From a virus (Duplodnaviria > Heunggongvirae > Uroviricota > Caudoviricetes), in the IMG/VR virus record IMGVR_UViG_2541047926_000013, positions 1 to 26,967 of that record: DNA of 26,967 nucleotides; one strand, given 5' to 3'. Of the stretch, positions 3,001 to 6,000 are shown piece after piece (within the stretch, counting starts at the first letter, position 1; each line of letters opens with the position of its first letter). A program made the position numbers.

Positions 3001-6000
3001 CAGGTGTAGCTCCTTGCCCCATAGCACTTTCCAGGCTAACAACCGTATAGAATTCTTGTCCGATGTCTCCGGTTTCTGGAGTGAAGAACACCGCGCCAAT
3101 GGAAACGATCGGTGCATCCTTATTTTTCCCCATCGTCTCAAGGTCGATCATTAAGTTGTTCATCACTTCACCTCCTGCGGCGGTTCCGGTAGCGGCATCC
3201 AGTGAGTTGCTTGCTCAATACCATTACCCGGCTTAATCGTTGCATCTCCGCGCCGAAAGGTGCTTCCGGTATAGCGTGCGGAGCATATTAGCGGTTCAAC
3301 CAGAGAGCTATCGAAATTCACCGAAATAAGCACGTTCTGGCCCTTTTCAGGCATTCGATCACTACAGCTTATCCAACCATCCGGAGTTACCGGAGAGTTG
3401 CCATTTACATCGAAGTTTGGCTCTGCGTCCTGAACCAGGAGGATGTAACCATTCTTGGCAGTATCAAGTTCTAACGCCTCGGTGACGGTGCCGAAATAGC
3501 GATTACCTAAATCAGCATCACAAGTGCTTACATCAATGGAAACTTCCATGCCCTCAATTAATTCTGGCAAGTTGTAAGTTTGGCTTACAGGTTCGGCTTC
3601 CAGCGATGCCAGTGCAATACGAAGCGCCTGAATTGTGGTAGTGCTATCGTTTGGGACTATTCCATATCGCTCGAATACAGCGATATGGCCGCGTATAATC
3701 TCAGGCGTAAGCTCTTTGTAAGCATAAGCAAGAGACTCTGATGCATTATCCGGCACTACTGGCGATGGCTGTTTAGCTTCTAAATCAGCAATTCTGTCAA
3801 CCACGGCATCGACAGCATCTGAAAAACTGAAACAGTTACTCCACTCAGGCCTATCCCCGGTTGCTGCAAAGTACATATCAGCTAAAGCAGACTCAGCATG
3901 GTCACGCTCATTAATTAGTTGCTCTTCGCTTTTCTCCAGTTCAGCAATGCGCTTACCCCCATCCGAGATAACACCTTCATAATATTCACGCTGCTCGTTG
4001 AGTTTTGATTTTGCTGCCTCCAGTTCGTCCAGTAGTGCAATCACATCAGGGTCACTGTCATCAACTACTGTTACGCGTGATTTTTCATAATGCTCGTCGG
4101 CAAGTGTTCGACCAATTTTGAAATCTCCATCACCACCATAACTGGAGCAGGCATAAACGACATGTGCTCCAGATATACGCTGTATTGACATTTCCTCGCC
4201 ACAAACAGAGCATTCAGGTACTGGCTTAGGTGAATAACGTTCCCGTAGCGCCTGATAATCAATCTTGCTCACTGGTTGCCCTCCTTCATAAAAATAATCC
4301 AGTGGGTCTTGTCACCCTTTCCTGTTCGTTGACCGATAACAGGCTTTCTGTCGGTCAGTACCAATATTTGGCGAACAGGTATTTGCGTTTCATTCCATTT
4401 AAAAATCAGAACGCCGTATGGACGCAACACACGAAAGGCTTCTTTAAATCCCTGCCGCAAATCATCACGCCAGGTGTCTTTATTCAGCCGTCCATATTTC
4501 TTTCCCATCCAGGCGTTATCACCGACACGCTCAAGATGCGGAGGGTCGAATACAACCATCGAAAAAGATGCGTCTGCAAATGGTAGTGCACGAAAATCAG
4601 CTATCAGGTCAGGACTGATAATCAGGCGCCGTCCATCACACAATGTGTGCTCTTCCTTTCTGATATCGCTAAATATCGCCCGGTCGTCCTTCTTATCGAA
4701 CCAGAACATGCGACTGCCACAGCACATGTCGAGGATTGCTGCATGTCCAGTCACTGGTTGCCTCCTTTGCGAATCTGTTCCGCCCATTCTTCAAGGGATT
4801 TCTCCGCATATTCACCAGACAGGCCATCAATCGGATGCGGTTCATTAGCCAACTCTTCTTTCGCTGACAGAATCATGCGTGTAACGTCGAAAACTTCAGC
4901 CAAAGGCTTATTGATAAATCCGTGATTGAAAGCAGCAGCAAGACGGCTTGCGGTATAGTTAATACCCTCGTTGCGAGCCTCAGCACGTACTTCATCGAAT
5001 TTACGCACCAGATACTCAGCATTTGTTTCATTCACTTTCAGATCTCGCGGTACACATTTCCCGCGAAGAAACCCTTCCATTTCGAAAACATTCATGCGCA
5101 TGTGCGTAACTCCGATAACTCGTTAAAGCGCTCCATAAACATCCCGTAGGCATGGCTCGGAGCCAGTGGAATAACTTTGAACATTTCTGTTGCCGGGATA
5201 CCTTCCAGTACTGGCCAGAAAGAGCCATCATCAAGCCCGAGATCGCGGCGTTCGGTTGCCAGCATGATGAGATCGGCATATTTCACAGGCGTGCTCATAA
5301 CCGGGGGTAACCCGTATTTCTCACGGATTACGGCGTCTATTTTTTCTTCCATCCGTTTATAGTCAGGAAGAAGGCGTTTCAGTGGAGCGGGAATATCCTG
5401 GCAATACGCTTCTGTTGCATCATGCATTAACGCTTCAAAAGCAAATTCCTGCGGCACCAGCTGGCTGCAAAGCACCGCATGCTGGGCGACACTGTAGAAG
5501 TGTGAAAGATGTCCTGCAAAGCGACAGATATTTGAAAGGGAAACCGCGATATCGTTAATCACGATGTCGTCTTTATTTATCTTGTCATAATAAAAATGCT
5601 TCCCGGAAAAAGTTTTAATAAATGACATTTTGTTCTCCACTTTATATGCGCTGCACCGCGCTGAATTCGGGTAAAAGGAATCCCGCACCATCCGGCGATT
5701 ATTGAGTTAATTACGTTTCCATAAATGCCCCCGCAGGGGCATTTGCAGTAATGAAATCAGGCGGTGAAAGTACCAATAAAGGTTTCTACTTTGCTGTCTT
5801 TGAATTTCTCAACAAGCAGATCACGAAATTCGTTAGCCATTTCTTCCTGCACTGCTTCCAGCTGAATAATGCGCAGAACCAGTACAGGACGATCGCCAGT
5901 GATAATGCTGAGGCGTAATTTAAACGGACGTTCTTTCAGACCTTCAAACGGAACGCATTTAAATTCAAATGCCACTGGCATAATGTCTTTGGTCTTCGCT

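Follow-up and report, generated by a model that had tools for sequence, protein, structure and literature searches.

Three orphan methyltransferase genes of different families in a mosaic lambda-like prophage of Escherichia coli

Introduction

The phage Dam family PF05869/TIGR01712 is of the HP1 Dam type, and the Staphylococcus aureus phage enzyme PamA and the methyltransferases (MTases) of lactococcal 936 phages are presumed here to be members of it. PamA, which is 141 aa long, methylates GATC, and related phage enzymes methylate GATC or other motifs; GATC specificity is also ascribed to M.EcoVT2Dam, as cited in PMC6602927. M.EcoGI and M.EcoGII are prophage MTases of E. coli O104:H4 C227-11 (Murray et al., 2018; PMC5778455). 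Experiments showed that both of them, and the reconstructed ancestor Anc291, are non-site-specific (PMC5778455; PMC11551740), and M.EcoGI, M.EcoGII, and the homologue M.EcoMV are silent in lysogens (PMC5778455; PMC4659465). Three orphan MTases have been found in the lactococcal phage Phi93 (PMC4190342), and up to three MTases in Paracoccus prophages (PMC6536676).

Here we analyzed a window, that is, a whole stretch of DNA of 26,967 nt, which also carries three such genes. As in Phi93 and the Paracoccus prophages, several orphan MTases of different families lie in different modules and are read as anti-restriction genes. However, the hosts and the MTase families differ, and the motifs of the Phi93 enzymes were assigned by SMRT sequencing, whereas the MTases of the window are known from their sequences. 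We consider it probable that the window represents a mosaic lambdoid prophage with three independent orphan amino-MTase cassettes, namely a late M.EcoGII-type enzyme, a PF05869 enzyme, and a small DPPH amino-MTase.

Results and discussion

Gene content of the window

The prophage in the window is lambda-like and mosaic, of the CPS-53/mEp460/SfV-like type, and adjoins a dusA remnant; its host is E. coli. At most 79% of the window was covered by any complete E. coli genome. Three intact MTase ORFs were found, one per transcription unit. The small MTase gene lies in the early-left unit, the Dam-like gene in the early-right (replication/nin) unit, and the beta-class gene in the late unit. A preliminary description had listed them as orphan MTases of different classes, none of them with an adjacent restriction endonuclease, and this was confirmed. 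The ORFs are intact at the positions listed in Table 1, and their catalytic motifs are kept, with GNPPY in the Dam-like enzyme, TDPPY in the beta-class enzyme, and a highly conserved DPPH in the small enzyme. The neighbours of the three genes encode an Ea22/DUF551 protein, a protein of a PHROG without a function, YfdR, a 3'-5' exonuclease, PerC/YfdN, a LexA-DBD protein, RusA, antiterminator Q, and a holin. Neither a restriction-system nuclease nor a match to a PADLOC defence model was found among these neighbours, and none of the MTase genes adjoins a cognate endonuclease gene as in a Type II restriction-modification system. Most of the result for the window is good annotation: two of the MTases belong to well-known phage DNA-methylase families, and the third belongs to a tiny, widespread phage family. 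Both PADLOC papers cite REBASE.

Table 1. Positions of the MTase genes and associated signals in the window
Feature	Position (nt)	Strand	Description
Small MTase	4269..4754	-	161 aa; leftward early operon; GTG start; motif I ILDMCCGS; motif IV FDPPH; without target-recognition domain
Shine-Dalgarno sequence	4761..4767	-	AAGGAGG; 6 nt 5' of GTG 4754
Phage N6-adenine MTase (Dam-like)	11427..12080	+	217 aa; PF05869/TIGR01712; GNPPY
Candidate late promoter (pR'-like)	15401..15429	+	TTGCAT-17 nt-TAAGAT; just 3' of Q gene (14575-15369); by eye
Candidate tR'-like terminator	15478..15499	+	CCCGC-CACTGA-GCGGG, then T6; putative, by eye
Beta-class PF01555 MTase	15976..17028	+	350 aa; M.EcoGI/GII family; predicted non-specific m6A; TDPPY 33-37; FMGSGS 310-315
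Terminator-like hairpin	17036..17062	+	GGCCACG-TTG-CGTGGCC, then T-run; 8 nt 3' of the beta MTase stop codon

The late and replication-region enzymes

The late enzyme matched PF01555 with an E-value of 1e-42 (146.6 bits, against a gathering cut-off of 26.7), and its motifs follow the beta order, with TDPPY in the N-terminal part and FMGSGS in the C-terminal part. Over the full length it was 81% identical and 91% similar to M.EcoGII, and it was 89% identical to Anc291, the active reconstructed ancestor of M.EcoGII; both reference sequences were machine-read from the PDF supplement of PMC11551740, so that these values may contain small reading errors. Near-identical copies of the enzyme (98-99.7%) are present in SfV, mEp460, cdtI, and Ayreon. 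The window enzyme shares with M.EcoGII the beta motif order, the DPPY motif, and the prophage setting, but it departs from M.EcoGII at about 19% of the residues, for the most part in the central part that is thought to contact DNA. Judged by this likeness, the window allele is expected to be active without sequence specificity.

The beta MTase gene sits between the Q and holin genes, downstream of the candidate pR'- and tR'-like signals. The promoter was read by eye and the site was not reported by the consensus promoter scan, and it is therefore listed as a candidate. The hairpin that follows the MTase gene lies inside the mechanically called holin ORF (17009-17440), upstream of the Pfam holin match (residues 35-137), and its counterpart in phage Ayreon is annotated 'terminator'.

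The replication-region enzyme belongs to the PF05869 phage N6-adenine MTases. It matched PF05869 with an E-value of 1e-45 (155.7 bits, cut-off 28.1) and TIGR01712 with an E-value of 2e-76 (255.3 bits, equivalog cut-off 97.05), and the catalytic motif NPPY is present within GNPPY. In these above-cut-off scores and this motif, as well as in its small size, the lack of an obvious recognition domain, and the replication/nin position, it is like the rest of the family, but it is longer than its relatives (217 aa versus 141-175 aa). The gene is translationally coupled to yfdN/PerC upstream (TAATG overlap) and to the LexA-DBD gene downstream (ATGA overlap). The nearest relative of a characterised type that was compared, VT2-Sakai orf32 (presumably M.EcoVT2Dam), proved to be a PF05869 protein, and the window enzyme was only 31% identical to it. 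The name 'Dam-like' should not be read as GATC-specific, and GATC is a possible site of the enzyme. The frequency of GATC in the window was also examined as a clue to specificity. The under-representation (100 observed versus 132 expected) was too mild to be informative.

The small DPPH enzyme

According to the preliminary description, the small enzyme starts at GTG behind a strong AAGGAGG site. The spacing of this Shine-Dalgarno sequence agreed with the GTG start, GTG 4754 overlaps the TGA stop codon of the upstream ORF 4751-5101 as GTGA, and the homologues begin at the equivalent residue; ATG 4787 simply marks the longest ORF. The GTG start is not new, since RefSeq WP_021567714.1 is already the 486-nt GTG version. 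The protein is basic, with a pI of 9.2.

The small enzyme is predicted to be a Rossmann core of about 150 aa with a SAM-binding motif in its N-terminal part and, behind it, a catalytic loop with invariant DPPH. Motif IV, FDPPH, occupies residues 69-73 directly after strand E64-69, and fits the amino-MTase pattern (D/N/S)PP(Y/F/W/H). In 94 diverse representatives of 50%-identity clusters, motifs I, II, III, and IV were invariant and DPPH was conserved at 99-100%, which shows that the motif is not a chance occurrence. The AF2 model computed from a diverse alignment (A2) had a pLDDT of 91.7 and showed the class I Rossmann MTase fold with the SAM-binding motif I; it replaced a poor model (pLDDT 63.7) from a shallow alignment of 56 close homologues (A1), which was dropped. 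The best structural neighbours were class I MTases of a generic kind, among them Trm11, RsmC, and RsmD, which are tRNA/rRNA m2G enzymes. Neither the small enzyme nor the Dam-like enzyme had a close match in sequence and profile searches of the PDB. The top profile match of the small enzyme was PH0226 (1ve3), a generic class I MTase, and a DPP(F/Y) loop was present among the profile matches in RsmD, which aligned across the loop, and in Trm-G10.

The small enzyme matched phrog_954, 'DNA methyltransferase' (5e-88), and the PADLOC models MTase_II (2e-74) and oMTase (8e-51) (PDLC03288 and PDLC03730). No curated DNA-MTase family of Pfam or NCBIfam was matched, and there was no PF01555 match above threshold; the matches in these two collections were weak and generic (Methyltransf_11/25), with Methyltransf_11 at 22.3 bits against a cut-off of 21.2 and without any single significant stretch. 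Since no DNA-MTase Pfam family was matched and the class I fold is generic, the DNA-MTase label of the small enzyme is a prediction. Alignment by hhalign with the beta MTase of the window gave a probability of 93% (E 3e-7) over the stretch from DPP(H/Y) to RVLKPxG, and the catalytic half of the small enzyme resembles the beta-class DNA MTases. The PF01555 beta-class enzymes (M.RsrI, M.MboIIA, CcrM, and M.PvuII) are its nearest characterised relatives, and the shared catalytic segment consists of a hydrophobic strand, DPP(aromatic), W, about 20 residues, and RVLKPxGxL. However, motif I of the small enzyme precedes motif IV instead of following it, which is a permuted, gamma-like order, motif IV has His where Tyr or Phe is usual, and no target-recognition domain was found in the conserved unit of about 150 aa that makes up the whole protein. 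A literature search for DPPH as motif IV, or for a characterised member of the family, found none.

Longer homologues were also inspected. The N-terminal extensions of about 60 residues in some of them, which were considered as a recognition domain, were heterogeneous and had no Pfam match, and the idea was rejected. The forms of 248-279 aa were likewise rejected as genuine longer enzymes, because at the conserved junction their C-terminal part results from read-through into an Ea22-like downstream gene.

The small family was present in 1095 of 5426 complete E. coli genomes (about 20%), occurs in temperate phages from hosts of many phyla, and comprises about 2,000 clusters at 50% identity. Its members, which include proteins from phages of Enterobacteria, Gordonia, and Streptococcus, are 39-65% identical across phages of Proteobacteria, Firmicutes, Actinobacteria, and Bacteroidetes, a haloarchaeal virus, and a microvirus. 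All genomic contexts inspected were phage, and the gene often adjoins replication/recombination genes or another MTase gene. RefSeq names the family only 'class I SAM-dependent methyltransferase'.

The most likely target of the small enzyme would be an exocyclic amino group in DNA, probably N6 of adenine, and it would act on this base with no separate domain for recognition. A DNA substrate is favoured by the hhalign likeness, which concerns specifically the catalytic half of a DNA MTase of PF01555, and by the matches (2e-74) to PADLOC MTase models of the restriction-modification type. At one slot with 99.7% identical flanks, the Vibrio phages K19 and K29b carry either a PF05869 DNA MTase or a small-family MTase. 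One member lies on a microvirus-like contig of 5.9 kb, where every gene must earn its place, and equally small MTases such as PamA are proven DNA MTases. These data speak against another substrate, which we consider unlikely: the enzyme might methylate RNA (for example, guanine-N2 or adenine-N6 of tRNA or rRNA), a protein glutamine, or a small molecule in host takeover or counter-defence, which would leave the prophage with two DNA MTase genes instead of three. The purely generic Pfam matches, the DPP(F/Y) loops of RsmD and Trm-G10, and the lack of a target-recognition domain would agree with this, and the identity of the family across distant hosts, which is unusual for a site-specific anti-restriction enzyme, could fit a universal substrate.

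The lack of a recognition domain together with the high conservation across hosts points to a possible low specificity or a universal target. We tentatively suggest, with low confidence, that the 161-aa DPPH protein is a minimal, virus-confined amino-MTase, permuted relative to the beta class, that may methylate DNA with little or no specificity, may have a preference for DNA that is single-stranded or being replicated, or may have a universal RNA as its target. If this is true, it would be a new compact non-specific methylase of a usefulness comparable to that of M.EcoGII or Hia5. Assignment of the base, the substrate, and any motif of the family would fill a real gap in phage methylome annotation and could yield a very small methylation tool.

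Role of the three enzymes

The cassettes lie in separate transcription units that are expected to be under the control of the phage repressor or of antiterminator Q, and protection of progeny DNA in lytic growth is the likeliest role of the MTases. The late M.EcoGII-type enzyme would most likely methylate adenines in almost any context during phage DNA replication and packaging, and the progeny genomes would then resist many restriction enzymes that are blocked by m6A. Owing to this enzyme, the DNA that the prophage emits is probably rich in methylated adenine. This matters for predicting its host range across restriction barriers as well as its susceptibility to methylation-dependent restriction enzymes. 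Should every adenine be methylated by the late enzyme, the remaining MTases look redundant for protection, which counts against the preferred reading. The preliminary description had proposed layered protection against host restriction or epigenetic control. The anti-restriction part of this proposal is plausible, because the late enzyme is close to the non-specific adenine methylase M.EcoGII, but neither the layered design nor epigenetic control in the lysogen was supported.

It is very improbable that the MTases act mainly as epigenetic regulators of the lysogen, or of lysis-lysogeny or packaging decisions of the phage, with anti-restriction as a secondary effect. Such regulation has parallels: PamA, a prophage orphan MTase, rewires transcription and virulence of S. 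aureus, Dam acts on P1 packaging, host Dam is reportedly necessary for stable 933W lysogeny, and the genes to which the Dam-like gene is coupled in the window, PerC/YfdN and LexA-DBD, encode regulators. However, all three MTase operons are expected to be repressed in the lysogen, and a context-free adenine MTase would be a poor site-specific regulator. The published silence of the related enzymes in lysogens also argues against it, as M.EcoMV is not transcribed in EC958, and M.EcoGI and M.EcoGII gave no methylation signal in lysogens and were harmful when expressed constitutively (PMC5778455).

For the preferred reading of three independent cassettes, the co-occurrence of the genes was examined. 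A 100%-identical Dam-like gene with sufficient flank was present at 45 IMG/VR loci. It was the only one of the three genes at 28 of them, it was accompanied by the beta enzyme at 15, and the complete trio was present at 1. A PF05869 gene was present within 10 kb at only 9 of 56 small-gene loci, and HH107, the closest complete genome, has the Dam-like and beta genes, with other small ORFs replacing the small MTase. The three MTase genes assort independently in otherwise similar phages, so the layered design is unsupported, and ordinary gene shuffling seems to have brought the trio together. The location of the genes in three differently timed units and the occurrence of the same trio on one further IMG/VR contig, L008, would favour a co-adapted module for defence evasion, layered in time and selected as a whole, but in view of these counts we consider such a module very improbable.

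Three orphan methyltransferase genes and their co-occurrence

The three methyltransferase (MTase) genes named in the preliminary description were real and intact (see the table). The small protein contained ILDMCCGS as motif I and FDPPH as motif IV. The Dam-like protein matched PF05869 (1e-45) and the NCBIfam equivalog TIGR01712 (2e-76) and contained GNPPY, and the late gene product matched PF01555 (1e-42), with the beta-class order of DPPY toward the N-terminus and FMGSGS toward the C-terminus. PHROGs and PADLOC labelled all three proteins DNA, Type II or orphan MTases. As had been proposed, no restriction enzyme was adjacent: neither restriction nucleases nor PADLOC defence models were matched by any of the neighbours. 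The two flanking proteins in the table had no Pfam match, and the PHROGs to which they belong are of unknown function. Two of the three enzymes belong to well-known families, one being a commercially used enzyme type, and proteins identical to the window enzymes are already annotated in RefSeq.

The trio had been read as layered protection against host restriction or as epigenetic control. The orphan status stood, and an anti-restriction role of the orphan MTases holds up as plausible. However, the trio is not a designed layer, since the three genes mostly occur apart. Among 45 IMG/VR loci with a 100%-identical Dam-like gene and enough flank, this gene was alone in 28, accompanied by the beta enzyme in 15 and by a divergent partial small-family match in one; a single locus (L008) carried all three. 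Around the small gene, neither other MTase family was found in 46 of 56 loci, and a PF05869 gene lay within 10 kb in nine, a range outside which the beta gene would mostly fall. The small gene sits in a variable cassette array, located between YfdR and the exonuclease, with conserved junction sequences. Three MTases in one phage are known from Phi93 (PMC4190342), and Paracoccus prophages have up to three (PMC6536676). Epigenetic control in the lysogen was unsupported: M.EcoGII, the characterised relative of the late enzyme, is silent in the lysogen, and its constitutive expression is harmful (PMC5778455).

Caption: Coordinates of features in the window and in compared loci
Feature	Position	Strand	Remark
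DUF2713 host gene	1-708		left end of window
Ead/Ea22-like-DUF551 ORF	3163-4272	-	369 aa
Small-gene junctions	4269-4284; 4751-4765	-	both gene ends
Small MTase	4269-4754	-	161 aa; GTG at 4754
Flanking protein	4751-5101
AAGGAGG	4761-4767	-
Longest-ORF ATG	4787	-
Early-operon ORF	6647-7327		leftward operon
STnc100 match	7145-7367	-	49.1 bits; gathering score 47
Dam-like MTase	11427-12080	+	217 aa
Candidate promoter	15401-15429	+	TTGCAT-17-TAAGAT; read by eye
Candidate terminator	15478-15499	+	CCCGC/GCGGG-T6; read by eye
Flanking protein	15598-15825
Region before beta-gene ATG	15955-15978	+
Beta MTase	15976-17028	+	350 aa
Strong hairpin terminator	17036-17062	+	after beta-gene stop codon
L083, C5 MTase and small-family homologue	966-2953
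L084, small-family MTase	5326-5781		151 aa
L087 (Vibrio phage K19), PF05869 Dam-like MTase	2304-3007		swap slot
L088 (Vibrio phage K29b), small DPPH-family MTase	2503-3164		swap slot

The late and Dam-like enzymes

The beta enzyme was 81% identical and 91% similar over its full length to M.EcoGII (sequence from the supplement of PMC11551740), which methylates adenine in any DNA context (PMC5778455). Its identity to Anc291, a reconstructed ancestor, was 89%; Anc291 has retained non-site-specific activity, and its activity on DNA is 2.4-fold higher (PMC11551740). Homologues from O111 STEC (about 93% similarity) and ST131 (99% identity) are also treated as non-specific and silent, and SfV, mEp460, cdtI and Ayreon carry copies 98-99.7% identical to the window gene. 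The gene lies downstream of Q, in the place that stx occupies in Stx phages, a position implying that its late expression would depend on Q. There was no recognisable Shine-Dalgarno sequence before its ATG (…gttacgcttactgatccATG); weak translation might, speculatively, curb the toxicity of a non-specific methylase. A GATC site lies 2 nt upstream of the start.

Membership of the Dam-like enzyme in PF05869/TIGR01712 is solid, but its specificity is not. Orf32 in the nin region of VT2-Sakai (175 aa; PF05869 at 6e-65) is presumably M.EcoVT2Dam. The latter is cited as a GATC enzyme (PMC6602927). The window enzyme shared only 31% identity with orf32 over 144 residues. We take PamA and the small MTases of lactococcal phages to be members of the same family; PamA (141 aa) is GATC-specific, so small size alone is no sign of non-specificity. 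Other motifs than GATC are proposed for the lactococcal phage enzymes (PMC4190342). Because of the low identity to orf32 and the varied motifs of relatives, the protein was named only as a phage N6-adenine DNA MTase, with no site assigned. TAATG and ATGA overlaps couple its gene to the two neighbours, as at the small-gene junctions. Some relatives (phrog_33262) are fused to a PAPS-reductase-like domain and annotated 'phosphoadenosine phosphosulfate reductase'; these fusions of about 495 aa, with a C-terminal Dam-like domain 45-48% identical to the window enzyme, occurred in T1-like and Chi-like Salmonella/Klebsiella phages and some E. coli prophages. A gokushovirus record also matched the PF05869 enzyme.

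Start and junctions of the small gene

The proposed GTG start of the small gene, in place of ATG, was correct. AAGGAGG lies 6 nt ahead of this GTG (minus strand, GCAAAGGAGGCAACCAGTGACTGG), which shares nucleotides with the upstream ORF's TGA stop, and homologues start at the equivalent position. The ATG is merely the longest-ORF start, with its sole GGAG about 13 nt off. Yet the call adds nothing to existing annotation, because RefSeq WP_021567714.1 is exactly the 486-nt GTG version. The same junction (AAGGAGGGCAACCAGTGA) joins the small-MTase stop to the GTG of the next gene. GGAGG(G)CAACCAGTGA is present at both gene ends and unites a Shine-Dalgarno site with a GTG start and an overlapping stop codon, TGA; the encoded tail is ...GGNQ* or ...EGNQ*. 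In some database homologues (for example P0002, 279 aa), read-through fusion has occurred precisely at this point, and the junction appears to be a conserved boundary, one that could favour cassette exchange in the ea region. The Ead/Ea22-like N-terminus and DUF551 C-terminus, annotated as separate or partial genes in related genomes, are joined in one ORF in the window.

Distribution and substrate of the small DPPH family

The small DPPH family is the remaining interest and the only non-textbook part, as it was not found characterised experimentally in the literature. A word-indexed search gave over 8,000 clusters (90% identity), most of them from Enterobacterales, and exhaustive phmmer against 1.84 billion representatives gave 2,058 clusters (50% identity), of which 246 had E-values below 1e-30. 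GenBank phages yielded 255 records by tblastn, with hosts including Streptococcus, Vibrio, Acinetobacter, Porphyromonas, Listeria and Enterococcus; a Gordonia phage (65% identity) and a haloarchaeal tailed virus (39%) were also matched. L084 (ENA contig k147_2848839, 5949 bp) has a gene for a 42% identical MTase as well as one for a Microviridae Phage_F major capsid protein, and probably represents an ssDNA microvirus. Conservation spans a unit of about 150 aa, and members of greater length proved to be read-through fusions or to bear unrelated extensions without a Pfam match. Residues at least 95% conserved in 94 diverse representatives were D9, C12, G13, D30, R32, P48, D53, F64, V67, DPPH 70-73, Y87, G88, L90, W95, F103, E105, R108-V109-L110, G114, L116, F118-K119-W120, P138 and K157. 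The AlphaFold model (diverse alignment; pLDDT 91.7) showed the Rossmann core of MTases, strand 4 being immediately followed by DPPH, and fold searches returned generic class I MTases only.

We consider DNA amino-methylation the fairly likely activity of this enzyme. Hhalign matched the family to the window beta enzyme (93% probability, E 3e-7) from F-DPP(H/Y) through W to RVLKPxGxL; on this alignment, it resembles a beta-class DNA amino-MTase reduced to its catalytic half, lacking a recognition domain and with the SAM-binding motif shifted to the front. The PADLOC MTase_II and oMTase models matched as well, and the genes lie in phage replication and recombination modules, once, on the phage-like metagenomic contig L083, directly downstream of a PF00145 C5-cytosine DNA MTase (homologue 41% identical). 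Vibrio phages K19 and K29b provide a clean natural swap: between O-like replication genes and NinB, in flanks 99.7% identical over 2.3 kb on each side, one carries a Dam-like MTase and the other a small-family MTase, and the slot proteins showed no significant similarity except one 34-residue match (E 0.006). Against a DNA substrate, no DNA-MTase Pfam or NCBIfam model matched the small enzyme, and the PDB-sequence profile matches with a DPP(F/Y) loop were RNA m2G enzymes; a universal non-DNA target would also fit the cross-phylum conservation. For DNA amino-methylation, the target is probably adenine N6, because motif IV begins with Asp, as judged by general features of amino-MTase motifs.

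Prophage context

A lambdoid prophage of CPS-53/mEp460/SfV type extends from about 2.2 kb onward. Minus-strand genes for a PrtN-like protein, a 3'-5' exonuclease, the Ea22/DUF551 protein, the small MTase, YfdR and YfdQ are followed by a cI/cro/cII-like immunity region, replication and nin-type genes (PerC/YfdN, Dam-like MTase, LexA-DBD protein, RusA, KilA-N protein, DUF968) and a last block of antiterminator Q, beta MTase, holin, lysis genes, terminase, portal and capsid. E. coli HH107 was the closest complete genome, with its genes laid out in this way beside a dusA remnant. However, it covers no more than 79% of the window, and in place of the small MTase, which it lacks, it has other small ORFs. 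The Rfam sRNA family STnc100 matched over the 5' end of an ORF in the leftward early operon. In the whole window, GGCC was about two-fold under-represented against a Markov model (62 observed, 117 expected), which may reflect past restriction pressure; CTAG was low (8 and 16), and GATC only mildly low (100 and 132).
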